DNA from: Nitrospinales bacterium
GTDB lineage: Bacteria; Nitrospinota_A; UBA7883; JACRGQ01
Length of the DNA: 64,000 bases
Direction: 5' to 3'
NCBI GenBank assembly: GCA_023248535.1
Contig: JAHFEJ010000004.1
Coordinates: 3,012-67,011 of the forward strand
Positions 10,587 through 62,504 of the stretch are shown here, in pieces. The notes under the pieces are model-generated. The model worked only from the letters and a program-made list of their open reading frames with translations, did no database searches and had not been told where the DNA came from. Numbering within the stretch: position 1 is the stretch's first letter; the number at the start of each line of letters is the position of its first letter. Position numbers and translations under genes: made by a program.

Positions 10587-13037
10587 TCAGCCAAGATAAC
10601 GGGTGACGCGGGGAATGAAATCTTCCGGCACGATCGGCTTGGCGATGAAGTCGTTCGCGCCCAATTCAAACACCTTGCGCCGGATATCGATCAGTTCGCC
10701 GCTGACCCCGGTGGAAGAGGAAATGGCGCTGTTAACGATCACGGGAAGCGTTTGAAGTAATGGATTGGCCCGAATCTCCCGGAGCAGCTCAAATCCATCC
10801 ATTTCAGGCATGCCAAGATCGGTGATCAACAACATGACCGAAGTGGTTTTCAGTATCTCCAGGGCCTCCACCCCATTAGAGGCTTCAATGACTTCCACAT
10901 CCTTTATTTCCAGGATGTGCTTTCTCATGATGGCGCGCTGCACCTCTTGATCGTCCGCCACCAGAACCACCGGCCGGATCGGCGGGAACCGCATGGAAAA
11001 AACGGCGCCCCGTCCCTCAACCGAGGCGACCGTTAAATCACCGCCATGGGCTTCCATGATTTCCTTGCAATAGGGAAGCCCCAGCCCCGTTCCCTTTTCA
11101 CCGCCGGTTCCCGTGGTGGTCGTTTTCACCTCCGGCCTGAAAATATCGGGCAGAAGCGATGCCGGTATGCCAACGCCGCCGTCCTTCACGGTGATGGTGT
11201 GGGGATCGGAGGCCCCCACGGTTATGCTGTCGCCTTCACGGCAGAATTTCACGGCGTTTGAAACAAGGTTATTCAATACTTCCAAGATCAGCGCGGTGTC
11301 GGCGAAAACCTTCATGCCGGAGGGGACTTCGTTGATGAGCCGAATCCCTTTTTTCTCGGCGGCCGGAGAGTAATGCCCGAACGAAGAGGCCGCAATATCG
11401 CGTACCGTCACGGGCTTTTTAATCACCAAAATCTTTCCCGACTGCAAACGGCTTAAATCGAGCAATTGATCGATCATCTCCAACAGGCCGCCAAGGTTTC
11501 CGCGCGCCCTCGACAACAAATTCGTCTCCGCCGCCGCGTTCACATTATAATGTTCCTTATTTTCCAGCATTCCCAGGAGCGCCATCACATTCCCCAGCGG
11601 TCCGCGCAGGTCATGCGAGACGAGCGAGATAAACTTGTTTTTGATTTTGGTGGCGTCCTCGGCATGTTCTTTTTCGATCCGCAGCGCGGTCGTCCTTTGC
11701 TCCACTTTTATTTCCAGTTGTTCCTTGGCCTCCAGCAGTATCTGGTGCACCCGCATTTCGTTTTCCAGCGCGCGCGCCTGCGCCTCCTCCTTTTCCCGCC
11801 GGATGGCCGCCGTCTTATCCTTTATGGCTTCCGAAATGGCTATCGACATGAGAATCGCCTCGGCGCAAACACCAACATCCATTGCGTGGCTGGTAATTGC
11901 CGAAAACGGCACCACACCCAGATGAACCAGGCCGTACACCACGATCCCCGCGATGCTGGATGCCCAGGCAAGAAGGAAGAACCGCGCGGCGCGCAAACCG
12001 TTTTTCAACGCCATAACGCCGGCCGCCAATAGCAGCGGCGGATACACCAACGCGGTACAAACAATGATCATGTGGAGTTGGGTATAATTGGGCCATGTCA
12101 GCGACAAAATGGTCATAATGCCACACGCCCAGAGATAGCCAACCATAAGACGGTCGGCGCGGGGAGCTGTTACCCGCGAGTTGAGAAAGACGCGCGCAAA
12201 AACAATCCCGCTTGACTCGACATACATCACGGCAAAGAGTATCGAATGTTTGGACCACCACAGCCAATCCGGCCAGAAATAGGCGTGGGCGAATCCATTG
12301 AAAACCAGGTTCTCAAAAATCCAGCTGGAAAGATAAATGACATAGACGATACTGCTTTTTTCCTTCAGGGAAATAAACATGAACAGGTTGTAGCAAAACA
12401 CGGCGAACAACACACCGAAATTCAGGCCATACAACAGCCATTCGTTCCTCTGCCGCCTGTGGAAATTATTTTCGTTCCATAAGGTAAAGGGTGTCATAAA
12501 CGTAGTTTCCGTCTTGACGCGCAGGTAAAGCGTTGTTTCACCCGGACCGGCACGGAACGGAAAGACCAAGCCCTGGCTGACAATCCCCGTTTCTTCTGGA
12601 ACCTCCATCAAGCCCGCCCTCCGCTCCGTAAACCCCCCTTCCGGCCGGGGAACATAAAGCAATACATGGTCGAGGTGGGTAAAATCCGTTCCGAGAATTG
12701 CTTCGAAGGGAGAAGCGGAGGGATTATCGACCGCCACCTTGAACCAGATGGCTGATGCGGTGAAACCAAAATAGAGGTTATCCATTCTGCTGGGTGCAAA
12801 ACGGGACTGAAACGCGGGCGATGAAACATCGGCGATGGTCAACGCCCCGCCGGGGTCTTCAAAAATATCGACGTGGCGCCCTAACCTATAAAGAGCGGTC
12901 TTGCCATCCAGCACAACCGGTGACGCTTCTGACGTTGTTGCCGCCAAAGACGGAAAAGACTGAAAAGAAAAAAAGAGTGCGGCGATCCCCATAATGAGAA
13001 AATAAGTCCCGCCCCTTTTCCGATTTGCCAACACCAC
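10587..13037 (-). CDS. Hybrid sensor histidine kinase with 7TMR-DISM periplasmic and 7TM domains, HisKA, HATPase_c and C-terminal receiver
   Basis: 816 aa: signal peptide, periplasmic domain, 7 TM helices, coiled coil, H-box (LVSHDLRGPL), HATPase (DGGVGIP...GTGLGL), receiver (VLVADDQ...DLGMPEMDG). Confidence 0.85.
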   Translation of the reverse strand: MVLANRKRGGTYFLIMGIAALFFSFQSFPSLAATTSEASPVVLDGKTALYRLGRHVDIFEDPGGALTIADVSSPAFQSRFAPSRMDNLYFGFTASAIWFKVAVDNPSASPFEAILGTDFTHLDHVLLYVPRPEGGFTERRAGLMEVPEETGIVSQGLVFPFRAGPGETTLYLRVKTETTFMTPFTLWNENNFHRRQRNEWLLYGLNFGVLFAVFCYNLFMFISLKEKSSIVYVIYLSSWIFENLVFNGFAHAYFWPDWLWWSKHSILFAVMYVESSGIVFARVFLNSRVTAPRADRLMVGYLWACGIMTILSLTWPNYTQLHMIIVCTALVYPPLLLAAGVMALKNGLRAARFFLLAWASSIAGIVVYGLVHLGVVPFSAITSHAMDVGVCAEAILMSIAISEAIKDKTAAIRREKEEAQARALENEMRVHQILLEAKEQLEIKVEQRTTALRIEKEHAEDATKIKNKFISLVSHDLRGPLGNVMALLGMLENKEHYNVNAAAETNLLSRARGNLGGLLEMIDQLLDLSRLQSGKILVIKKPVTVRDIAASSFGHYSPAAEKKGIRLINEVPSGMKVFADTALILEVLNNLVSNAVKFCREGDSITVGASDPHTITVKDGGVGIPASLLPDIFRPEVKTTTTGTGGEKGTGLGLPYCKEIMEAHGGDLTVASVEGRGAVFSMRFPPIRPVVLVADDQEVQRAIMRKHILEIKDVEVIEASNGVEALEILKTTSVMLLITDLGMPEMDGFELLREIRANPLLQTLPVIVNSAISSSTGVSGELIDIRRKVFELGANDFIAKPIVPEDFIPRVTRYLG

Positions 13038-13139
13038 TCCCCTTTAACCCCTTTACGCACACCGCCACGCCACAATTACCCGACAGACCTGTATAAATCA
13101 AAAATCCAATAACTATTGCGCCGCGGTTGCCAAATATCA

Positions 13140-13425
13140 TACCATTTTGACATTATTTTTGTTGAAGCAACAAGATGTAGTTATGACCCTCGGCACGGTA
13201 TACTTTTCCTTGATACAAAATACCCGAGCATTTTTATAAGATTTACATAGGTCATTAACATATTATTAATAGCCAACTGACGATCTAAAACTATAACTAT
13301 TTGTTTTTGTTATCTTATTACATGTGCACTTGCTAACATTAATAGTTGACAAATGCACTATGGTTTATATAAAATAGTTGAAGTTTGATAAACTGACCTT
13401 ATGTTGATATAAGTTAAATTTATGG
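13140..13425. promoter_or_regulatory. AT-rich (~30% GC) intergenic island upstream of the sulfur-assimilation cluster; probable promoter/regulatory region
   Basis: Roughly 290 bp of A/T-rich sequence in a ~62% GC genome, immediately upstream of the sulfite reductase gene; contains sigma70-like TTGACA-N16-TATAAA (about 13346-13373). Confidence 0.4.
13346..13373 (+). promoter_or_regulatory. Candidate sigma70-type promoter (TTGACA-16 bp-TATAAA)
   Basis: Consensus -35 hexamer and near-consensus -10 with 16-bp spacer, ~50 bp upstream of the ATG at 13426. Confidence 0.35.
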
Positions 13426-24396: not shown

Positions 24397-24405
24397 CCTC
24401 TCCAT

Positions 24406-24606
24406 GTCATGCCGGGCTTGACCCGGCACCCAGAAAAATTATCAATGCTTCCCTCAATCGGCCCCTTGGGCCGAGGTACATGCTGAGAGCATGTACCCGC
24501 CGGGCTTCCGGGTGAGTACACAATTCATTGTGTACGCTGGCGCGCCAGCGCCAAGAGAGGTCGGCCCGTACGGGCCGATGTACCCAATAAATTGTGTACC
24601 CACCCA
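24406..24606. mobile_element. MITE-like element, family A (left hairpin TIR + REP-palindrome core; right TIR missing)
   Basis: GTCATGCCGGGCTTGACCCGGCACCCAGAAAAATTATCAATGCTTCC matches the TIRs of the copies at 45822, 53352 and 62347; followed by palindromes GTACATGCTGAGAGCATGTAC, GTACACAATTCATTGTGTAC, TGGCGCGCCAGCGCCA, GGCCCGTACGGGCC, GTACCCAATAAATTGTGTACC. Confidence 0.5.
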
Positions 24607-24679
24607 GGAATGCGGAAGAAAAAGAAAAGGGGGTCTTTTTTCAAAGGCCCCCTTCGTGCGGTTTTAAAGAACCGGTTTG

Positions 24680-43962: not shown

Positions 43963-45210
43963 ATGAGTTTAAACAGTGCAATGTATTCCGGGGTCAGCGG
44001 CATTATGACGCTGGGCAACGCCATGAACGTGACGGGCGACAACATCGCCAACGTCAACACGGTCGGCTACAAGGGGAGCCGCACGATGTTCTCGGACATC
44101 CTGTCCAATTCGCTTTCCAACGGCTCCACCACCATGCAGATGGGGCGCGGCACCTTTTTGAGCGGCGTCACCCCCTCGTGGTCGCAGGGGTCCTTTGAAA
44201 GCACCGCCAACGCCACCGACATGGCGCTGCAAGGCTCCGGCTTTTTCATGGTGAAAGACCCCGTCAACAACGCCAAGTTCTACACCCGTTCCGGCCAGTT
44301 CACCCTTAACAACCAGGGGCAACTGGTCAACGGCAACGGGATGAACGTGCAGGGGTATCAGGTAACCAGCACCGTGAACGGCGCGGTGAACACCAACGGC
44401 CAGATCAGCAACATCAACATCGGCGGCGTGCAGTCGGTGCCCAAGGCCACCACGCAGTTCCGCATCGGCGCGAACCTCAACGCCGCGGCCAGCGCCAACG
44501 CCACGTTCGCCACCAGCTTCGACGTGTACAACAACCTCGGCGGCCGCGTGACGCTGACCTACAGCTTCACGAAAAGCCCCCTGGCCCCGCTGACGTGGAA
44601 CTACACGGTCGCAGCCTCTTCCGGCACGATAACCACCGGCGGCGCGGGCGCCATGACCTTCAACTCCTCCGGCCAGATGGTGACACCGGCGGCAAACCCC
44701 GCGCTTTCCATCACCGGCTTCCCCACCGGCGCCGCGCCCCTGACGATGAACTGGACGCTCTTCAACCCGGTTGGCGGCGCGCTTTACGGCGACATCACCA
44801 GCTACAACGCCGGATCGACCACGACCTCGATCATCCAGGACGGCTACTCGACCGGCACGCTGAAGGGCCTCTCGGTCGACGGCAAGGGGGTCATCAGCGG
44901 CCTCTTCTCCAACGGCCAAACGCAGGCGCTCTACCAGTTGGCGATAGCCGACTTCGCCAGCCCCTGGGGCCTCAGCCGCCAGGGGGGCAGCATGTACGCC
45001 GAAACCATGCAGTCGGGCCAGCCGTTGCTGGGCACCGCCGGATCGGGCGGACTGGGCACCGTGCTCGGCAGTTCGCTGGAGCTTTCCAACGTCGACCTCG
45101 CCAGCGAGTTCGTGAAAATGATCCAGAACCAGCGCGGCTACCAGGCGAACTCGCGCATCATCACCACGGTGGACGAGATGATGACCGAAGCGGTGAACCT
45201 GAAACGGTAA
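43963..45210 (+). CDS. flgE: Flagellar hook protein FlgE
   Basis: 415 aa; N-terminal rod/hook heptad region (MSLNSAMYSGVSGIMTLGNAMNVTGDNIANVNTVGYKG) and C-terminal LSNVDLASEFVKMIQNQRGYQANSRIITTVDEMM. Confidence 0.92.
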   Translation: MSLNSAMYSGVSGIMTLGNAMNVTGDNIANVNTVGYKGSRTMFSDILSNSLSNGSTTMQMGRGTFLSGVTPSWSQGSFESTANATDMALQGSGFFMVKDPVNNAKFYTRSGQFTLNNQGQLVNGNGMNVQGYQVTSTVNGAVNTNGQISNINIGGVQSVPKATTQFRIGANLNAAASANATFATSFDVYNNLGGRVTLTYSFTKSPLAPLTWNYTVAASSGTITTGGAGAMTFNSSGQMVTPAANPALSITGFPTGAAPLTMNWTLFNPVGGALYGDITSYNAGSTTTSIIQDGYSTGTLKGLSVDGKGVISGLFSNGQTQALYQLAIADFASPWGLSRQGGSMYAETMQSGQPLLGTAGSGGLGTVLGSSLELSNVDLASEFVKMIQNQRGYQANSRIITTVDEMMTEAVNLKR

Positions 45211-45226
45211 ATAAGATAACGTAAAT

Positions 45227-45248
45227 CCCGCCGGTGTTCCGGCGGGAA
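45227..45248 (+). terminator. Terminator-like hairpin after flgE (no clear U-tract)
   Basis: CCCGCCGG-TGTT-CCGGCGGG 8-bp GC stem 17 nt after the flgE stop; lacks a T-run, so it may be rho-assisted or only an RNA end structure. Confidence 0.25.
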
Positions 45249-45562
45249 CGTTGAAGGATAACGATGTACATAAGGAGTGTTAGCACGGTCAAGCATTTTT
45301 CGCCTCCTTGTTTCGACCGGCGCCTTTAAACACTGCGTCCTGTTCAACCCCCGCCGGGATTAACCCCCCGGCGGGGGCAAAAAATGAGCGGATGAAATTT
45401 AGAAGCAAGCGTTTTTGAAATTGGAAGTTAAGAAGGGAACCGCCGTTTTCGCCTCCTTGTTTATACGGCGCGCGTCCTTTTAACTGCGTCAAAATGCCCG
45501 GCCGGCAGCCTACCGGCCGGGCGCCCAAATCCCCCCTCTTCCCCTTCCCCCTGTCAGAAGTG

Positions 45563-45657
45563 AACCACAGAGCAACAGAGACACGGAGAGGACTGTTTGG
45601 GGTAATAAACAACGAAAAAAAGATTTTTCTGCCCTGTGCCTCTGCGTCTCTGTGGTT
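45563..45657. repeat. Long imperfect hairpin repeat, family B, copy 1
   Basis: AACCACAGAGCAACAGAGACACGGAGAGG ...~40-nt A/T-rich loop... CCTCTGCGTCTCTGTGGTT; related copy at 60744-60846. Confidence 0.5.
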
Positions 45658-45670
45658 ATCTCCATATTCC

Positions 45671-45821
45671 CCGGTGGGTGCAGGTTCTCAACATATACAT
45701 CGGCCCGGCGGGCTTGGAGAGTTGCCGCTGGCGCGGCAATGTCACACAGGAATGTGAGACCTGCTTCCCATGGTGGGACACGCATTCTTGCGTGTCATCG
45801 GCCCGGCGGGCCGATTGCGAT
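45671..45821. repeat. REP-like palindrome cluster
   Basis: Successive GC-rich palindromes GGCCCGGCGGGC, GCCGCTGGCGCGGCAA, GACACGCATTCTTGCGTGTC, GGCCCGGCGGGCC sharing motifs with the RAYT-flanking REPs. Confidence 0.5.
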
Positions 45822-45994
45822 GTCATCCCGCACTTGATGCGGGATCCAGAAACATTATCAAAGCTTCCCCCATCGGCCCGCCGGGCCGACGTTCCCTTGG
45901 CGCGGTGCGCCAATGTACCCAATAAATTATGTACCTACCGGGAGGGGGAAAGTTTGGACAATATTTCTGGGTGCCGGGTCAAGCCCGGCATGAC
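45822..45994. mobile_element. MITE-like element, family A, complete copy (two ~45-bp hairpin TIRs flanking a REP-palindrome core)
   Basis: Left TIR GTCATCCCGCACTTGATGCGGGATCCAGAAACATTATCAAAGCTTCC; right TIR (reverse complement) GTCATGCCGGGCTTGACCCGGCACCCAGAAATATTGTCCAAACTTTCC; core GGCCCGCCGGGCC / TTGGCGCGGTGCGCCAA / GTACCCAATAAATTATGTACC. Confidence 0.6.
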
Positions 45995-46042
45995 AGAGAA
46001 GGAATTGGCGCCGCATTGCCAACTGCCTCGATACCCGTTATA

Positions 46043-46339
46043 ATGGGAGCCGTGATAAAGTCGTTTGCCGGCAAAATGACCCGGAAGCTTTTCGAGGAAG
46101 GAAAGGCCGAAGGTCATTTACGGGCAATCGAGGCGGCGGCGAAAAGAAAGCTCGCCATGCTTCACTTTGCGCGGCGGCTTGCCGACTTGCGCGTGCCGCC
46201 GGGAAACAGGCTGGAAGCCCTTAAAGGCGGCAGAAAAGGACAATTCAGCATCAGGATAAACGACCAATATCGAATCTGCTTTCGTTTTGATGAAGGAGAA
46301 GGCAATGCTTACGATGTTGAAATCACCGATTATCATTAA
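46043..46339 (+). CDS. higB: HigB-like toxin (plasmid-maintenance killer protein, RelE/ParE superfamily)
   Basis: 98 aa MGAVIKSFAGKMTRKLFEEGKAEG...NRLEALKGGRKGQFSIRINDQYRICFRFDEGEGNAYDVEITDYH matches the HigB/killer family (FKxxxxxKxF ... RLEALKG...QFSIRINDQYRICFRF...DVEI.DYH). Confidence 0.85.
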   Translation: MGAVIKSFAGKMTRKLFEEGKAEGHLRAIEAAAKRKLAMLHFARRLADLRVPPGNRLEALKGGRKGQFSIRINDQYRICFRFDEGEGNAYDVEITDYH

Positions 46340-46351
46340 GGAAATGAAGCC

Positions 46352-46651
46352 ATGAGCGGTATTGGATACGCCATTGAACATCCGGGGGCGGTGCTGTGGG
46401 AGGAGTACCTTCAGCCGATGGGGATAACCCAAAGCCGCTTCGCGCGGGAGATCGCCATCAGCTTTACGCGAGCCAACGAACTGATAAACGGGAAACGGGG
46501 CTTTACGCCCGATACCGCCCTGCGGGTGGCGAAATATCTGGGCACGTCGCCGGAATTCTGGATGAACTGGCAAGCGGCCTACGATCTCCAGCGCGCCCGC
46601 AAAGAGCACGCCGGCGACTATCGCAAAATAAAAACCGTCACCGCCGCGTAA
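46352..46651 (+). CDS. higA: HigA-family antitoxin (XRE-type HTH)
   Basis: 99 aa; IEHPGAVLWEEYLQPMGITQSRFAREIAISFTRANELINGKRGFTPDTALRVAKYLGTSPEFWMNWQAAYDL is the canonical HigA/VapI HTH antidote pattern; 12 nt after higB. Confidence 0.85.
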   Translation: MSGIGYAIEHPGAVLWEEYLQPMGITQSRFAREIAISFTRANELINGKRGFTPDTALRVAKYLGTSPEFWMNWQAAYDLQRARKEHAGDYRKIKTVTAA

Positions 46652-46770
46652 CCCTCCATCGGCCCGCCGGGCCGATTGTCTTGGTAGGTGCGACATTCCT
46701 GTCGCACATTGGCGCAACGCGCCAACCGTGTCGGCCCAATGGGCCGATGTACCCAATGAATTGGGTACCC
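46652..46770. repeat. REP-like palindrome cluster abutting the higA stop
   Basis: GGCCCGCCGGGCC, GTGCGACATTCCTGTCGCAC, TTGGCGCAACGCGCCAA, GGCCCAATGGGCC, GTACCCAATGAATTGGGTAC: the same palindrome types as in the RAYT-flanking arrays. Confidence 0.55.
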
Positions 46771-46780
46771 ACCGGGAAAG

Positions 46781-46810
46781 GCAGGGGCAGGTTTGAAACC
46801 TGCCCGTACA
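46781..46810. repeat. Palindrome GGGCAGGTTTGAAACCTGCCC (copy 1; second copy at 47939-47967)
   Basis: Near-identical 25-29-bp hairpin plus flank (…CCCGTACA(A)GCATCCG) present twice, bracketing the low-GC cassette. Confidence 0.45.
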
Positions 46811-46837
46811 GCATCCGGTCCACCAAGAACAAGAAAG

Positions 46838-46864
46838 GGCCGGCCTGGCGGGCCGCTTTTCTTC
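46838..46864 (+). terminator. Possible rho-independent terminator (GGGCCGGCC-loop-GGCCGC + TTTTCTT)
   Basis: GC-rich stem followed by a T-rich run ~190 nt downstream of higA; weak assignment. Confidence 0.3.
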
Positions 46865-47185
46865 GTGGCACGATCCGGCTTTGCCCGAGAGAACGCGGAT
46901 CGCATATTCAGGGTTATACCCGCAATTGACCTGAAATTCCGACAGTATCCCCGCCCCTTCTTCTTCCCCTCTGCCTGCCGGCACCGCTCCCGGATCGCCA
47001 CAAAGTATTCTTTCCGCTATACTTTCCCCATTTTCCGCGTTCCTTTTGGTTACATTTAATATGAGGCAATTCGTAGTATAAATAAACCAGCTATTTGACA
47101 TCTCAAAAAGTAGCATTCCGAGGTACAATCAACATAATCTAAAGAGTCTCTGCTCTTCCTTTGATTTCATCGGAGGTGTCTGATC

Positions 47186-47455
47186 TTGAACAAATTCAAC
47201 GTTAAGAAGACAGCGAAAGATGACCTACTGAACATTCCCAACGTACATTCTCATCCGGGAATTCAATTTCCCCTCCTTGTAGAGCCTGTAGCGAACTCGA
47301 TTACATGCTTATTTGAAAGCCAGCACCACTATAACAACGGGGTGAACGTACTGCATGACAACACCAGCCGGGCAGGTGTTGAAGGCGCCGCTATCCAATT
47401 GCTCACGCTGACATCTTTTCCTTCCGAAGTGGTGGCGTATGAGCCTAAACAATAA
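47186..47455 (+). CDS. Hypothetical small protein in the low-GC cassette
   Basis: TTG start 9 nt after GGAGG; ORF lies entirely in ~45% GC DNA; no recognised domain. Confidence 0.3.
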   Translation: MNKFNVKKTAKDDLLNIPNVHSHPGIQFPLLVEPVANSITCLFESQHHYNNGVNVLHDNTSRAGVEGAAIQLLTLTSFPSEVVAYEPKQ

Positions 47456-47903
47456 GCGCCTTGCGGCGCTCATCGGGTGTCTTTTTATAGCCTACGGCGC
47501 AATAACGGGATGTGGCCGTAAATTGAAGCCAAATGAAGGCGGCACCGCGTCTTCCGGCGGGGGTGGCTTGCCAAGCGCATATGATTCATCAACGCCATCG
47601 GGCACCTCGAATGGCGCGTCATCTTCAAGTAACAATGCCCAGCGGCATGGCTGTCAATACCCATCAAGCGGCAATCCAACATCGTGCGTTGAAAAGGATA
47701 ATATCGTCAGCCAGGCAAATTGCAATAATTATGAGACGTTCGCTGATTCTTGCCCTTTGACCGGCCTTGTCGCCACATGCTCCATTAAAGATACATATGG
47801 CTCTGTCATCAAAATAAATTATGAATATACCGGCACCCTGCAAGACGCTCAACTATACACAACGATTGGAACAGGCGAGACACTTTCTTGCATAGGCCCT
47901 TGA
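47439..47903 (+). CDS. Hypothetical Cys-rich lipoprotein in the low-GC cassette
   Basis: Lipoprotein signal MSLNNKRLAALIGCLFIAYGAITGC (lipobox ITGC); Ser/Gly-rich linker; 8 further cysteines; low GC. Confidence 0.5.
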   Translation: MSLNNKRLAALIGCLFIAYGAITGCGRKLKPNEGGTASSGGGGLPSAYDSSTPSGTSNGASSSSNNAQRHGCQYPSSGNPTSCVEKDNIVSQANCNNYETFADSCPLTGLVATCSIKDTYGSVIKINYEYTGTLQDAQLYTTIGTGETLSCIGP

Positions 47904-47938
47904 CGGCAAGACGCAACGCACCTGAGCCGCCTTTTGAG

Positions 47939-47967
47939 GTACGGGCAGGTTTGAAACCTGCCCGTAC
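47939..47967. repeat. Palindrome GTACGGGCAGGTTTGAAACCTGCCCGTAC (copy 2)
   Basis: 12-bp perfect stem with TTGAA loop 36 nt after the lipoprotein stop; same element as at 46781-46810. Confidence 0.5.
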
Positions 47968-48006
47968 AAGCATCCGCCCCGCCGGGAGAAAGGAAAAAGA
48001 CAAGAG

Positions 48007-48050
48007 AGCTTTGAAAATATTTCTGGATCCCGGGTCAAGCCCGGGATGAC
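48007..48050. mobile_element. Solo right-end TIR of MITE family A, 7 nt downstream of the rel stop
   Basis: AGCTTTGAAAATATTTCTGGATCCCGGGTCAAGCCCGGGATGAC: its reverse complement GTCATCCCGGGCTTGACCCGGGATCCAGAAATATTTTCAAAGCT matches the family A TIR consensus. Confidence 0.5.
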
Positions 48051-48057
48051 AAAAAGA

Positions 48058-50235
48058 TCAGCGTTTTTCGGCGCGGCGGGCATCCATGATACGTTCGACG
48101 CTGCGGATGCCATCGAGGCCGCGCACCGTTTCCAATATCCGTTGCAGGTGATTGAGGTCTTCTATCTCGACCGTGAGATCCAGATCCCCCTCTATCGCGC
48201 TGGTGGCGGTGACGGTGGCGGATGCGATATTCGCTTCGCACCCGGCGATGGCGGCGGAGACCCGCGCCAAAATGCCGGGACGGTTGAGGCTCTTAATGAG
48301 GATGCGCACCGGGCGGAGCTGCTTTTTCGCGGCGGTCTCCCACCGGGCTTCGAGCAGCCGTTCGGGGTCGGCCTCCAGGGATTTAAGGGAGGGGCAACTT
48401 TTGGCGTGGATCACCAAGCCGTGCCCGGCCGAGATGTACCCCAAGATCGGGTCGCCCGGCACGGGGTTGCAGCAGCCGGCGAAGCGGATCAGCATGTCGT
48501 GGATATCGCCCACGCGCACCCCCAGGTTTTCGGTCACGCTGGCGATGTAGTTCTTGCGGCGGTTTTCGACCTCGCGCCATTTTTCGGCCGGGAGCAGCTT
48601 GTGCAGCACCGTGTAGGCCGATAGCGACGAGATGCCGATACGGTCGAGCATCACCTCGGCGTTTTTGAAACCGAGGGCCACGGCGGCGGCCTCCATCGTT
48701 TCTTTCGTCCAAAACGCCTTCAGGTCCAGCCCGTGGCGGCGCAGCTCGTTCTCCACGATCTCGTTCCCCAGCCGCAGCGATTCCACCTTCTGCGCGTTGC
48801 GCAGATACCCCTTTATCTTGGCGCGGCCGTGGGAGGTGACGGCGATCTTGAGCCAATCGCGCACCGGGTGCTGCTCGTTCGAGGTGAGCACCTCCACCAC
48901 GTCGCCGTTGCGCAGCTGGTAGTCGGGCGGCACCGGCTTGCCGTTCACCAGCGCGCCGAGGAAGTGGTTCCCCAACTGGGTGTGGATGCCGTAGGCGAAA
49001 TCGAGCGGGGTGGCCCCGGCGGGGAGCGCTTTCACCTCCTGCTTCGGGGTGAAGACGTAGACCTCGTTCGGAAAGAGGTCCATCTTGAGCGTGTCGATGA
49101 ACTCCTCGGAATTGTCGACGCTGAGGCCCAGGTCCAGCAGCCGCTTCACCCAGATGAAATTCTCGTCGTCCTTGGTGGGGGGGCGCTTCCCCTCTTTATA
49201 GCGGAAGTGCGCCGCCACGCCGTCTTCGCTGTTGCGGTGCATCTGGCTGGAGCGTATCTGGAATTCCACCCGCCGCCCGGTGTGCGTGAGCACGGTGGTG
49301 TGTATGCTCTGGTACATGTTCTCTTTCGGCAGCGCGATATAGTCCTTGAACTTGCCGGGGATCGGCTTCCACTTCGTGTGGACAAGCCCCAGCACCTTGT
49401 AGCAGTCGAGCAGGCTGTTGGTGATGATCCGCACGCCGATGAGATCGTATATCTGGTCGAAATCGAGGTTCTGTTCGGTCATCTTGCGGTAGATGCCGTA
49501 AAAATGCTTGAAGCGCCACGACACCTGCCCCATGATCTTTTCCATCAGCATCAGGTCGCGCGTTTGGGCGCAGAGGCTGGTGATGAATTTATCCAGCTCC
49601 TCCTGCCGCTCTTTCATCAGCCCCTCGATCCGCTTGTACTCGAACGGCATGAGGTACTTGAAGGCTATGTTCTCCAGCTCCACCTTGATCCAGTGCAGGC
49701 CCAGGCGGTTGGCCAGCGGGGCGTAGATATCCATCGTCTCCTGCGAGATGAATTTCTGTTTCTGCGGGGGGAGGAAATCGAGCGTCCGCATGTTATGGAG
49801 GCGGTCGGCCAGCTTGATGAGCACGACGCGGAGGTCGTTGCTCATGGCCAGGATCATCTTGCGGACGTTTTCGGCCTGCGATTCCTCTTTGCTGGCGAAG
49901 GTGAGGCGGCTGAGCTTGGTAAGCCCCTCCACCAGCAGCAGCACCTCCCCGCCGAAGATCGAGCGTATCTGGGCGGGATCGGCTTCGGTATCCTCCAGCG
50001 TGTCGTGCATCAGGGCGGCGGCGATGGCGGCGGGATCCATCTTCATTTTGGTGAGGATGAACGCCACCTGCATCGGGTGGCTCATATACGGCTCGCCGGA
50101 AAGGCGCACCTGCCCCTTGTGCGCCGCCGAGGCGAACGCGTAGGCCCCCAGTATCTTGTCCACCTCGGCGTCCGGCTGATATTCGCGGACGGCTTCGATG
50201 ATCTCCTCCAGGTGTATCGCCCGCAGCGCCTGCAT
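48058..50235 (-). CDS. rel: Bifunctional (p)ppGpp synthetase/hydrolase, RelA/SpoT family
   Basis: 725 aa; HD hydrolase domain (HPMQVAFILTKMKMDPAAIAAALMHDTLEDT), RelA/SpoT synthetase domain, TGS and C-terminal ACT. Confidence 0.95.
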   Translation of the reverse strand: MQALRAIHLEEIIEAVREYQPDAEVDKILGAYAFASAAHKGQVRLSGEPYMSHPMQVAFILTKMKMDPAAIAAALMHDTLEDTEADPAQIRSIFGGEVLLLVEGLTKLSRLTFASKEESQAENVRKMILAMSNDLRVVLIKLADRLHNMRTLDFLPPQKQKFISQETMDIYAPLANRLGLHWIKVELENIAFKYLMPFEYKRIEGLMKERQEELDKFITSLCAQTRDLMLMEKIMGQVSWRFKHFYGIYRKMTEQNLDFDQIYDLIGVRIITNSLLDCYKVLGLVHTKWKPIPGKFKDYIALPKENMYQSIHTTVLTHTGRRVEFQIRSSQMHRNSEDGVAAHFRYKEGKRPPTKDDENFIWVKRLLDLGLSVDNSEEFIDTLKMDLFPNEVYVFTPKQEVKALPAGATPLDFAYGIHTQLGNHFLGALVNGKPVPPDYQLRNGDVVEVLTSNEQHPVRDWLKIAVTSHGRAKIKGYLRNAQKVESLRLGNEIVENELRRHGLDLKAFWTKETMEAAAVALGFKNAEVMLDRIGISSLSAYTVLHKLLPAEKWREVENRRKNYIASVTENLGVRVGDIHDMLIRFAGCCNPVPGDPILGYISAGHGLVIHAKSCPSLKSLEADPERLLEARWETAAKKQLRPVRILIKSLNRPGILARVSAAIAGCEANIASATVTATSAIEGDLDLTVEIEDLNHLQRILETVRGLDGIRSVERIMDARRAEKR

Positions 50236-53338: not shown

Positions 53339-53351
53339 CCGCGCCTTTCAT

Positions 53352-53498
53352 GTCATGCCGGTCTTGAACCGGCACCCAGAAATACTTTCAAAACTTCTTG
53401 GCGCTACGCGCCAATGTACATGCTCTCAGCATGTACCCACCCCGGGGAAAAGAAAGTTTTGAAAATATGTCTGGATCCCGCATCAAGTGCGGGATGAC
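53352..53498. mobile_element. MITE-like element, family A, complete copy filling the gap between the convergent secA and topoisomerase B-subunit stops
   Basis: Left TIR GTCATGCCGGTCTTGAACCGGCACCCAGAAATACTTTCAAAACTTC; core TTGGCGCTACGCGCCAA + GTACATGCTCTCAGCATGTAC; right TIR ...AAAGTTTTGAAAATATGTCTGGATCCCGCATCAAGTGCGGGATGAC. Confidence 0.65.
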
Positions 53499-53502
53499 AG
53501 CT

Positions 53503-55392
53503 CTAGATGTCGGCTTCGAAGCCGGCGGCGTTTTCGGTGATGAACTTGAAGCGGGCCTGCACGTCGCGCCCCATCAGGTCGCTGAAGGCCTTGTCGGTCT
53601 CTTCCGCATCGACCAGCATCACCTGCAGGAGGGTGCGCTTTGATTTATCCATGGTGGTCTCTTTCAGCACCGTCACCGGCATTTCCCCCAGCCCTTTGAA
53701 GCGCGAGACCTCCAGCTTCCGGTTTTTGTGCTTCGCCATCACCTGTTCTTTTTCGGCGTCGTCGGCGGCGTAGATCACCTCGTCCTTGCCCATCGTGATG
53801 CGGTAGAGCGGCGGCTGGCTGAGGTAGATGTGGCCGTGATCGATGAGCGGCCTCATGTTGCGGTAAAAGAACGTGAGCAGCAGGGCGCTGATGTGCGCGC
53901 CGTCCACGTCGGCGTCGGTCATGATGATGATCTTGCTGTAGCGCAGCTTGTCCAGGTCGAACGCCGCGCCGATGCCGGTGCCGATGCTGAGCATCAGCGC
54001 CTGTATTTCGGCGTTGGCCTGCAGCTTGGCGTCGGCCGCGCTTTCGACGTTCAGTATCTTTCCGCGCAGCGGGAGGATGGCCTGCGTTTTGCGGTCGCGG
54101 GCCTGCTTGCTGCTGCCGCCGGCGCTGTCGCCTTCCACGATGAACAGTTCGCACTCATCGGGGCTGGCGCTGGAGCAATCGGCCAGCTTGCCCGGCAGCG
54201 TGAGGCGGTGCGACACCAGCCCCTTGCGGTGCACCTCTTCCCGCGCGGCGCGGCTGGCCATGCGGGCGCGGGCGGCCAGCTCCACGCGGGCGATGACGGC
54301 GTCGGCCACGGTGGGATTTTCCAGCAGGTACTTTTCAAACGCGGGACGGACGGCGCTTTCCACCTGGCCGGCCACTTCCACGTTGTTCAGCTTGTCTTTC
54401 GTCTGCCCCTGGAACTGCGGCTGGCCCACCAGCACGCTCAGGATGCAGGTAAGCCCTTCGCGCACGTCGTCCGCCGTGACCGGCGGCGCCTTCCCTTTCG
54501 GCAGCTTGCGCTCCATCGCGTCGCGCACGGTCTTCACCAGCGCGCTCCGCAGTCCGGCCTCGTGCGTGCCGCCGTCGCCGGTGGCGATGCTGTTGCAGTA
54601 GCTTTCCATGCGGCTTTCGGTTTTCTCGGTCCACTGGAAGGCCGCCTCCACCTTGATGGGGGAGGTTACGCTTACGAAGAACGGGGCGGGCATCACCCCT
54701 TTTTGCGCGCCGAGCACCTTGTTGATGTAGTCCAGAATGCCGTTCTCGTAGAAATAGCTCTTGGTTTCCTTGGTACGGCGGTCGGTGACGCTGATCTTCA
54801 GCCCCTTGTTGATGAAGGCCTTGGATTCGGCCCGGTCGCAGATGGTCTTGAAATTGAATTTCAGCTTGCCGAATATCTCGTGGTCGGTGACAAAGTGCTG
54901 GGACGTTCCGTGCGCGCGCGTCGCCTCGCCTTTCCGCAGCTTGGTTTTCGCGACGCCGCGGCTGAACTCCTGATGCCAGGTGTAGCCATCGCGCTTCACC
55001 TCCACCTCCAGCTTTTCGGAGAGCGCGTTCACCACGCTAATGCCGACGCCGTGCAGGCCGCCAGAGGAGGAATAGTTCTTGTTGTGGAACTTGCCCCCGG
55101 CGTGCAGCGTGCACATGATGATCTCAAGCGCCGGTTTTTTGAATTTGGGATGCAAGTCGACCGGTATGCCGCGGCCGTCGTCGGAGACCTTCACCGCGTT
55201 GTCGGCGGTGATCTCTATCTCGATGTGGGTGGCGTAGCCGTTGATCGCCTCGTCCACCGAGTTGTCGACCGCCTCCCACACCAGATGGTGCAGGCCGGTG
55301 CTGTCGGTGCCGCCGATGTACATGCCGGGGCGCACCCGGACCGGCTCCAGCCCTTCCAGTACCGTTATGTCTTCGGCGGTATACTTACCCAC
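53503..55392 (-). CDS. Type IIA DNA topoisomerase subunit B (GyrB/ParE family)
   Basis: 629 aa, GTG start; GHKL ATPase blocks ([31 protein letters not shown]), TOPRIM ([12 protein letters not shown]); assignment gyrB vs parE not resolvable by eye. Confidence 0.9.
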
Positions 55393-57655: not shown

Positions 57656-57753
57656 TGGAGAAAAGAAATAACAGATTTCGCCTTAAAATGGAAGCGGTAT
57701 AAATAGATATATGCGAATTAATGTGTTTTTATTGGTTGAATTCGTCTCCTTGC

Positions 57754-57991
57754 TTGGTGGGTACCCAATTCTTTATTGGTGGGTACCCAATTCATTGGGT
57801 ACATCATGCCACAAGGCAGGACTTTCCCCTTGGCGCTGGCGCGCCAACGTACACATTAAAATGTGTACCTACCCGGAAAAGCCCCTCTCTTGGTCTCGGT
57901 GGGACGGACACTCCTGTCCGTCATCGGCTCGCAGGGCCGACTCTCTATTGGCGCTGGCGCGCCAACGTACACATTAAAATGTGTACCCACC
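57754..57991. repeat. REP array (left flank of RAYT): two repeat units of GGTGGGTACCCAATTC(T)ATTGGGTAC / GGCCGACTCT / TTGGCGCTGGCGCGCCAA / GTACACATTAAAATGTGTACC
   Basis: Ends 4 nt before the RAYT stop; contains the same four palindrome types (P1-P4) as the right-flank array, plus GACGGACACTCCTGTCCGTC. Confidence 0.6.
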
Positions 57992-57995
57992 GGCA

Positions 57996-58487
57996 TCAAG
58001 GCAACATATTTTCATTTACAATCAGCCACGGGTAATCTTGCGGCCTTTCCGCAAGACCGGCACGAACCGCATTCCCCCGTATATACTCATATTTATCCAG
58101 CCATTCATCTTCATTCCGCACTATCCTGTCGTAGGACTCCTTCTGCCAGCAAGAACCGGTACGCTTGAGCAATCTGTTGACCGGGTGCGATGTTTTGCCT
58201 TTTATGGTTTTTAGAATGCCGGTCAGCGAATAAAATAACCCTGCCGCTTTCTCCAGCGGTCTTATCAAAAGATGTATGTGATCGGGCATAATAACGCCTA
58301 TTGAAACATCGTACTTGCTCCGCGCACCTTCAAGTACCGCCAATCGAACAATGTCACGCCCCGCCTCCGGCAACAAAAATCCTTTTGTGCGGAAGGTGAC
58401 AAAGTACCACATGCCCCCTTGCTGCCAATGAGGGAGCTTCCGGTGGGTGATCGTTACATCGGTTGCGGTAATGTTCCGCTTCGGCAT
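57996..58487 (-). mobile_element. REP-associated tyrosine transposase (RAYT, IS200/IS605 Y1 HUH transposase family)
   Basis: MPKRNITATDVTITHRKLPHWQQGGMWYFVTFRTKGF...IMPDHIHLLIRP (HxH/HUH motif) ...YEYIRGNAV (catalytic Tyr region); flanked on both sides by REP arrays; the ORF call extends with a TTG start into the REP, so the ATG at 58487 is preferred. Confidence 0.8.
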
Positions 58488-58512
58488 AAGCCGATGATAA
58501 CATTTCTTCCCT

Positions 58513-58950
58513 GCTCGGTGGGTATCCAATTTTTTATTAGGTGGGTACCCAATTCATTGGGTATATCGGCCCAACGGGCCGACTCTCTCTTGGCGCGTTG
58601 CGCCAATGTACACAATAAATTGTGTACCTACCCGGATGCTCGGTGGGTACCCATTTTAATGGGTACTTCGGCCCAACGGGCCGACTCTCTCTTGGCGCGT
58701 TGCGCCAATGTACACAATAAATTGTGTACCTACCCGGATGCTCGGTGGGTACCTATTTTAATGGGTACTTCGGCCCAACGGGCCGACTCTCTCTTGGCGC
58801 TTTGCGCCAATGTACACAATAAATTGTGTACCTACCCGGATGCTCGGTGGGTACCCATTTTAATGGGTACATTGGCGCAAAGCGCCAAGAAGGTGTCATA
58901 CCTGACGGCATGATGTACACAATAAATTGTGTACCTACCGGGGAAGCGGG
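58513..58950. repeat. Tandem REP array (right flank of RAYT): four ~102-bp units, each a string of four palindromes
   Basis: Unit GCTCGGTGGGTACCCATTTTAATGGGTACTTCGGCCCAACGGGCCGACTCTCTCTTGGCGCGTTGCGCCAATGTACACAATAAATTGTGTACCTACCCGGAT repeats at ~58513 (with a 23-bp insertion), 58638, 58740 and 58842 (last copy degenerate). Confidence 0.7.
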
Positions 58951-58985
58951 AATAAAAAAAGGGGCTTGGGTTGAACCCAAGCCCC
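58951..58985 (-). terminator. Rho-independent terminator of the porin gene
   Basis: Minus strand: GGGGCTTGGGTT-loop-AACCCAAGCCCC followed by TTTTTTTATT, 25 nt after the porin stop. Confidence 0.7.
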
Positions 58986-59010
58986 TTGTATGACGAATTA
59001 AGCGTTCTGG

Positions 59011-62315: not shown

Positions 62316-62346
62316 ATGCATTCCTGCCGCAAAATCCGCCTCCCTT

Positions 62347-62490
62347 TGTCATCCCGGCCTTGAGCCGGGATCCAGAAATATTTTCAAAGCTTTCTCCATC
62401 GGCCCGGTGGGCCGACACTCTTCAGCGGCAGGCGTGCCAATTTAAGAAAGCTTTGATAATGTGTCTGGATTCCCGCCTACGCGGGAATGA
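62347..62490. mobile_element. MITE-like element, family A, complete copy between the convergent folC and NHL-protein stops
   Basis: Left TIR GTCATCCCGGCCTTGAGCCGGGATCCAGAAATATTTTCAAAGCTTTC; right TIR GAAAGCTTTGATAATGTGTCTGGATTCCCGCCTACGCGGGAATGAC; short core with GGCCCGGTGGGCC. Confidence 0.65.
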
Positions 62491-62504
62491 CAGGGATGGG
62501 GAGA

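Follow-up and report, generated by a model that had tools for sequence, protein, structure and literature searches.

In the 64,000-nt stretch of Nitrospinales bacterium DNA analysed here (contig JAHFEJ010000004.1, hereafter the window), a low-GC cassette of two open reading frames (ORFs), ORF89 and ORF154, lies between the convergent genes flgE and spoT. Judged from sequence comparison, this cassette appears to be a genuine, horizontally acquired and reduced copy of a rare lipoprotein module, situated in a hot spot rich in repetitive extragenic palindromic (REP) elements. We consider it probable that the cassette forms an accessory islet of ~1.2 kb, at roughly 46782-47978, in a REP-rich variable region beside the toxin-antitoxin pair higBA; this account concerns structure and evolution only. 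An earlier note on this DNA had described the cassette at 46990-47905 as a low-GC pair of genes for a small TTG-started protein and a Cys-rich lipoprotein of 154 aa, bracketed by two palindromes and likely to have been acquired recently. Both ORFs are present as it claimed, on the forward strand, with ORF89 at 47186-47455 (TTG start) and ORF154 at 47439-47903 (ATG start, 154 aa), and their reading frames overlap by 17 nt.

Composition of the cassette

The GC content of 46990-47905 is 47.1%, compared with a mean of 57.8% over the window (standard deviation 3.9% for 916-bp windows), which gives z = -2.8 and places the stretch within the lowest 1.3% of such windows. In the adjoining genes spoT and flgE the GC content is 62-63% and the GC content at third codon positions (GC3) is 0.87-0.90. 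GC3 is 0.52 for ORF89 and 0.48 for ORF154, while the long ORFs of the window lie at 0.63-0.90. The low GC noted earlier against surroundings of ~62% is therefore real, and the windowed GC and GC3 analyses proposed to check it both found the deviation. The minimum of the cassette, 39%, lies in the AT-rich upstream stretch 46990-47185. The cassette thus has the atypical composition of a horizontally acquired islet. At least three other patches of the window are equally low in GC or lower, at 8.5-9.0 kb, 12.2-13.2 kb and 40.5-41.2 kb. The lowest of them (12241-13201, minimum 42.6%) is no islet and lies within the N-terminal membrane-sensor half of a hybrid histidine kinase gene (816 aa, 10587-13037, reverse strand).

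Lipoprotein features of ORF154

ORF154 begins with MSLNNKRLAALIGCLFIAYGAITG followed by the lipid Cys, and its N-terminus contains K6 and R7, a hydrophobic core and the lipobox LFIAYGAITG directly before C25. We applied a pattern of the PROSITE PS51257 type, which asks for K or R in the first 7 residues, six uncharged residues and [LIVMFWSTAG]2-[LIVMFYSTAGCQ]-[AGS]-C, with the Cys at 15-35. ORF154 matched it with LFIAYGAITGC ending at C25, and four of the five homologues described below also matched (P0002, P0003 from an internal start, P0006 and P0007), the fifth, P0005, failing at a Pro at position -2. The gene can accordingly be divided into a signal peptide (47439-47510), the Cys25 codon (47511-47513), a Ser/Gly-rich tether (47514-47636) and a six-Cys domain (47637-47900).

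The Cys-rich lipoprotein of the earlier note holds as far as the lipoprotein signal at C25 is concerned, but its "eight extra" cysteines do not. ORF154 contains eight in total: the non-conserved C14 of the signal peptide, C25 as the lipid site, and six within the C-terminal 85 residues, which are the only extra ones.

A rare family with a conserved gene order

In a word-indexed search only ORF154 itself was recovered, on a 1219-bp Logan contig (L001) identical to window 46749-47967. Five homologues with 47-50% identity emerged from an exhaustive HMMER search followed by a profile search. In the homology comparison proposed for both ORFs, ORF89 matched the 87-aa partner protein encoded beside one of these homologues (in L208). 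A further candidate, the 265-aa protein P0004, was discarded because its match reflected low complexity or repeats. The family comprises only six members among 5.8 billion protein clusters, and all five homologues sit on contigs of 1.4-1.8 kb from assemblies of SRA runs. Invariant in the family alignments are the lipobox Cys, the six domain Cys and the block INYEYxGTLxDAQxYT, and the Ser/Gly/Asn-rich tether varies freely.

Four of the homologous loci (L208, L209, L210 and L212) share 85-93% DNA identity with one another, and in each a RumA-like methyltransferase gene ends on one side and a NifU-like gene starts on the other. Their gene order is the same: a divergent gene for a 116-aa XRE/Cro-type repressor, the 87-aa ORF and the lipoprotein gene, the last two overlapping by 4 nt. 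The fifth locus, L211, has a separate context and carries an 83-aa ORF followed by the lipoprotein gene. Pairwise dN/dS is lowest in the repressor (0-0.10) and reaches 0.26-0.49 in the small protein and 0.25-0.59 in the lipoprotein. The genes of the module are therefore all coding and constrained, with the lipoprotein the fastest evolving of the three. A perfect palindrome, ACGTATACGT, is conserved between the repressor gene and the small-protein gene in the intergenic region of L208-L212 (for example L208 504-642) and is a plausible candidate operator. A related half-site, AACGTATAAG, is found in the same intergenic region.

The small partner protein did not exceed the gathering threshold for the GYD domain (PF08734; best E = 0.2, in one of six members), nor did it match any PDB profile. 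With its six-Cys lipoprotein, small cytoplasmic partner and XRE repressor, the locus adds a rare, undescribed protein family. That this family is known only from contigs of 1.2-1.8 kb may be because REPs break assemblies. REPs do fragment the assemblies of the source organism: short-read assemblies of the same sample (L001 and L207) break exactly at hairpins, the first base of L001 being the first base of GTACCCAATGAATTGGGTAC and its last base the last of the downstream palindrome.

Reduced state of the copy in the window

The copy of the module in the window is reduced. ORF89 aligns with the 87-aa partner of L208 at a BLASTP E = 6e-11 with a gap of 24 residues, an in-frame loss that removes the most conserved part of the family (VLFEAPSRTAAELFAKDLG...). 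It has no ATG at the usual start and begins 23 codons upstream, at the TTG that follows the Shine-Dalgarno sequence GGAGGTG. Its length alone is not significant (P ~0.25 in shuffles), and on the identical Logan contig the gene caller passed over it. We regard ORF89 as probably a degraded copy of the family's partner protein of 83-87 aa. No remnant of the XRE repressor and no upstream homology to the related loci rose above shuffled controls, and the candidate operator ACGTATACGT is absent from the window. With the repressor missing and the partner truncated, the lipoprotein gene is probably expressed without its normal control.

These losses would also be expected of a decaying remnant, that is, of a three-gene module that no longer functions and is being lost. 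Such a reading draws on the repressor gene having gone without trace, and on ORF89 lacking both the usual start and the 24 residues best conserved in the family and having been skipped by the gene caller. We nevertheless think it unlikely, since ORF154 is intact and unchanged at all invariant positions of the family, the lipobox and the six Cys among them, and since ORF89 is still open, with a strong Shine-Dalgarno sequence 7 nt before the TTG.

Probable acquisition and comparison with the closest relative

The closest relative available is the metagenome-assembled genome WY2.bin26, whose locus L002 shares 90.5-93% nucleotide identity with the window on the spoT side (90.5% over spoT). The homology ends at window position 48052, 6 nt past the spoT stop. 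Beyond spoT, positions 8050-8964 of L002 carry other hairpins and an AbrB-type antitoxin/PIN-type toxin pair, which replace higBA and the cassette. The comparison of presence and absence across strains proposed earlier was run on this single relative, and there the cassette is absent from the orthologous site. The break in synteny and the different genes of L002 imply that the region downstream of spoT varies between close relatives, and in gene content it has the look of a hot spot for accessory modules. The locus offers a clear example of REP-hairpin clusters marking such a hot spot, at which close relatives carry different accessory modules.

A homologous module is found in two other, unrelated contexts, namely the RumA-like/NifU-like interval and L211. 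Because the cassette is absent from the relative, has an atypical composition and belongs to a family found in three unrelated contexts, the comparison supports horizontal acquisition or translocation. Of the earlier claim of a likely recent horizontal acquisition, the acquisition is backed by GC3, by the absence from L002, by the unrelated contexts of the family and by the split REP mosaic described below, but the word recent is not. In the four orthologous loci, which have diverged to dS 0.13-0.48, module GC3 is 0.37-0.57 beside a flanking gene with a GC3 of 0.88. Since the low GC3 has been kept in four diverged loci, low GC is a lasting trait of the module and no clock.

The same values would favour a gene pair that is native and inherited vertically, its low GC being the outcome of selection, perhaps on the level of expression or on mRNA structure. 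We give this explanation little credence, less than that of a decaying remnant, in view of the absence of the pair from the site in a relative with 90.5% nucleotide identity, the three unrelated contexts of the family and its six members among 5.8 billion protein clusters.

Several points weigh against our reading of the cassette as an acquired islet. The persistence of low GC3 in orthologous loci cannot date the event and could reflect selection on the module. There is only one close relative, whose contig ends 916 nt past spoT, and no empty site was seen. Between flgE and spoT we found no integrase, transposase or tRNA gene, and the borders of the islet in this interval show neither mobility genes nor a target-site duplication. 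The repressor being lost and the partner truncated, the copy could itself be in decay. Finally, the REP mosaic that the cassette splits has a different composition in two other clusters of the window, at 62343-62491 and 24404-24640; the argument for insertion from the split mosaic is therefore suggestive only.

REP elements around the cassette

The bracketing palindrome occurs exactly twice in the window, where its chance expectation is 0. Copy 1 (GCAGGGGCAGGTTTGAAACCTGCCCGTAC, forward strand, 46781-46809) has two mismatches in the outer stem and a perfect stem of 10 bp, and is followed by the tail AGCATCCG; copy 2 (GTACGGGCAGGTTTGAAACCTGCCCGTAC, forward strand, 47939-47967) is exact, has a 14-bp stem, lies 36 nt past the ORF154 stop and is followed by the same tail (AAGCATCCG). 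Both are intergenic and in the same orientation, and they bracket the cassette as noted earlier, the upstream copy 181 nt ahead of 46990. Copy 2 stands between the convergent ORF154 and spoT and dominates the predicted fold of the 3' region.

REPs are short, GC-rich extragenic palindromes that cluster in mosaics, carry a GTAG (or CGTC) end tag and usually form species- or genus-specific families (Di Nocera et al. 2013, PMC3733652). As extragenic hairpins in the range of 20-40 bp, clustered in mosaics between convergent genes, the copies in the window resemble such elements and the bacterial interspersed mosaic elements (BIMEs) built from them, and there is also a gene for a REP-associated tyrosine transposase (RAYT) with hairpin arrays in the window. 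They differ from classical REPs in two ways. They read GTAC/GCAG...GTAC, a compensated GTAC variant, in place of the GTAG or CGTC tag; and their 21-nt core, GGGCAGGTTTGAAACCTGCCC, recurs unchanged, among the matches listed, in five viral contigs and in more than 120 metagenome contigs that are unrelated and have GC contents of 37-67%, some contigs having 2-4 copies. The consensus of the metagenome copies is GTAGGGGCAGGTTTGAAACCTGCCCCTAC with a GTAG...CTAC tag, and GTAG (65/139) and CTAC (85/139) dominate among the copies listed. Several of the metagenome and viral contigs (loci L082-L206) have an outer stem that varies and yet stays complementary, the core remaining constant. The palindromes are absent from the homologous loci of the lipoprotein family and are therefore not part of the module. 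Taken together, the flanking palindromes appear to be REP-type elements between convergent genes and not ends specific to the cassette. A full-text literature search with four sequence variants of the core returned no paper containing the palindrome, which is a broader curiosity in itself, the same core being present in very diverse environmental genomes. Nor did any paper turn up for the SRA runs or for the name of the metagenome-assembled genome.

The window is rich in short hairpins of several types that cluster between genes. At least six types form recurrent intergenic mosaics (45560-46000, 46655-46860, 24400-24640, 53340-53510 and 62340-62495), which are often two-fold symmetric, with inverted ATCCCG..CGGGAT hairpins and a TTTGAAAATATNTCTGG box at both ends. 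One mosaic run is uninterrupted at 45897-45995 and at 53400-53500, where it consists of the TTGGCGC..GCGCCAA hairpin, a GTAC hairpin with a CCACCGGGA tail, the TTTGAAAATATNTCTGG box and the ATCCCG..CGGGAT hairpin. A third copy is split into a left part at 46709-46781 and a right part at 48004-48051, with the palindromes and the cassette between them. Downstream of higA, the left part (46709-46781, forward strand) comprises the hairpins TTGGCGC..GCGCCAA, TCGGCCC..GGGCCGA and GTACCCAATGAATTGGGTAC, the last with a CCACCGGGAAAGG tail. On the other side, a stretch at 47979-48051 (forward strand), which ends 6 nt before the spoT stop, holds the right part, with a CCGCCGGGAGAAAGG tail, a TTTGAAAATATTTCTGG box and a ATCCCGGG..CCCGGGAT hairpin with GACA. 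A target-site duplication formed by CCACCGGGAAAGG and CCGCCGGGAGAAAGG was considered and rejected, the same tail following other hairpins of the window; similar 13-15-mers at the borders are ordinary hairpin tails.

The RAYT gene is located at 57996-58529 on the reverse strand (NF047646, E = 2e-22, 79.6 bits against a cutoff of 80). On both sides it has arrays of 20-nt hairpins that are headed by GTAC (GTACACAATAAATTGTGTAC and GTACCCATTTTAATGGGTAC among them) and differ in type from the bracketing palindrome. The gene and its arrays form a REPtron-like arrangement at 57700-58990. At 58959-58987 there is a second palindrome with a 14-bp stem, AAGGGGCTTGGGTTGAACCCAAGCCCCTT, built like the bracketing one with a G-rich stem and a TTGAA centre.

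An alternative role for the palindromes would be that of left- and right-end hairpins of the IS200/IS605 type, between which the 1.2-kb segment was moved in trans, as single-stranded DNA, by a RAYT, as a cargo that can be excised and inserted again. The palindrome has no further copy in 64 kb, and the two that bracket the cassette point the same way and have a private variant in common (a GTAC outer stem and an A(A)GCATCCG tail). A RAYT gene with GTAC-headed hairpins on either side lies 10 kb away, the cassette splits a mosaic that is contiguous elsewhere in the window, and if the hairpin travelled with cargo, this would agree with how widely its 21-nt core is spread over unrelated metagenomes. 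If this were true, pairs of REPs would be a vehicle for moving genes, beyond spreading themselves. We nonetheless hold such transport to be very improbable. The homologous loci are without such palindromes, neither a second copy nor an empty site is known, the CCACCGGGAAAGG/CCGCCGGGAGAAAGG direct repeat is the usual 3' hairpin tail of the genome and no target duplication, and the RAYT gene has a different type of hairpin at its sides; by a rough estimate (~0.15), two copies in neighbouring clusters are not unlikely to arise by chance.

A gene cassette of the integron type, in which the palindromes would be attC sites, would account for small promoter-poor ORFs and a toxin-antitoxin pair separated by imperfect palindromes, higBA cassettes being common in chromosomal integrons, but is already contradicted and hardly credible: attC sites measure at least ~55 bp and have RYYYAAC ... 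GTTRRRY core sites, whereas the palindrome, at 29 nt, is shorter than any attC, shows no such core sites at its borders, has relatives with the GTAG tags typical of REPs, and belongs with hairpins that are scattered between ordinary genes across the window. No intI was found between flgE and spoT, the large ORFs of the window not all having been scanned.

Proposed biogenesis, role and comparison with known systems

Returning to the acquired islet as the preferred explanation, we propose that the module entered by horizontal transfer or translocation into a recombination-prone REP cluster. Following the general route of bacterial lipoprotein biogenesis (Sec export, Lgt/LspA processing, sorting by a Gly at +2 and DsbA disulfides), the ORF154 precursor would be exported by Sec, lipidated, and cleaved by Lgt/LspA between ITG and C25. 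It would then be anchored in a membrane, by default the outer membrane, because residue +2 is Gly. The 41-residue Ser/Gly-rich tether would hold the 85-residue, beta-rich domain in the periplasm or on the surface, and the six invariant Cys may lock this domain through three disulfides made by DsbA. The flanking REP palindromes would double as 3' hairpins between the convergent genes.

In its positively charged N-terminus, hydrophobic core, lipobox A-I-T-G-C25 and flexible low-complexity tether before a small domain, ORF154 resembles the bacterial lipoproteins that are substrates of Lgt and LspA; it differs in that its mature domain matches no Pfam, NCBIfam or PDB-sequence family. A likeness in architecture, with a lipid anchor, a disordered linker and a disulfide-stabilised domain of ~80 residues, links it to RcsF, the outer-membrane stress-sensor lipoprotein of Enterobacteria, which has four Cys in non-consecutive disulfides. 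However, ORF154 has six Cys, lacks a Pfam match (the RcsF family included), stands in another gene context and shows no evidence of a signalling partner. A third comparison is with the phage-encoded exclusion lipoproteins Llp of T5, Cor of phi80 and N15, and Ltp of TP-J34. These small proteins guard the envelope against incoming phage and are often encoded beside a Cro/CI-type repressor, and Ltp has a Ser-rich tether. The likeness lies in small size, horizontal carriage, the repressor neighbour of the related loci and, for Ltp, the tether. ORF154 differs in having no significant PHROGs match and no nearby phage gene, searches of phage, IMG/VR and plasmid collections gave no relative of it, and it does not fall into this group.

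By analogy with such small transferred lipoproteins, and because the protein evolves relatively fast, we tentatively suggest, at odds well short of even, that ORF154 might be a protective envelope binder directed against a phage, a toxin or a lytic enzyme, either as an exclusion or immunity factor or as an enzyme inhibitor. If this were so, the lipoprotein would be a new factor of this kind. No family, structure or neighbouring gene spoke for or against the surface or immunity-type function that the earlier note had put forward. Searches of ORF154, ORF89 and the family members against Pfam, NCBIfam, PHROGs and PADLOC gave nothing usable, and sequence and profile searches of PDB with ORF154 gave no match. 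AlphaFold2 models were too poor to interpret: on the predicted local distance difference test (pLDDT) the mature protein by itself scored 39, and the domain, modelled with an alignment of 6 sequences, scored 49.8; a Foldseek search of PDB with the latter model found nothing below E = 1. Neither the two proteins nor the whole 1.2-kb DNA matched phage, plasmid or IMG/VR collections, and none of the six family loci contains phage genes. As it stands, ORF154 is an ordinary accessory gene, and REP-bounded cargo and a new envelope defence module are both unproven.

The locus as a whole also recalls the small genomic islets found at recombination hot spots. It shares with them the atypical composition, the content that varies between close relatives and the toxin-antitoxin neighbours (higBA here, AbrB/PIN in L002), and differs in that there is no integrase or tRNA and that its boundaries are REP clusters.

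Other features of the flgE-spoT interval

A terminator-like hairpin, CGGCCTGGCGGGCCG, followed by a T-run (46841-46855, forward strand), is a consensus match only; it would shield the cassette from read-through out of higBA. Inside the AT-rich upstream region (46990-47185, forward strand), positions 46995-47023 weakly match a sigma-70-like promoter, and positions 47172-47178 are the Shine-Dalgarno sequence GGAGGTG that precedes the ORF89 TTG. An Rfam search of 45000-48200 returned only a chance miRNA match.

On the right, the interval is closed by the spoT gene (48058-50235, reverse strand), which encodes a relA/spoT-type (p)ppGpp synthetase/hydrolase and at which synteny with the closest relative ends. 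In an exact-protein look-up, higA had no match and spoT matched only a short contig from the same sample.

On the left, the higB-higA toxin-antitoxin pair occupies 46052-46651 on the forward strand, with an approximate start for higB and with higA at 46352-46651. Over window 46016-46651 it matched the Pfam families HigB-like (E = 1.4e-17) and HTH_3 (E = 3.7e-9). The pair has a near-consensus promoter, TTGCCA-17-TATAAT, which ends 7 nt upstream of a likely GTG start. Like the cassette, higBA is bracketed by REP clusters, and the GC3 of higB is low, at 0.54.

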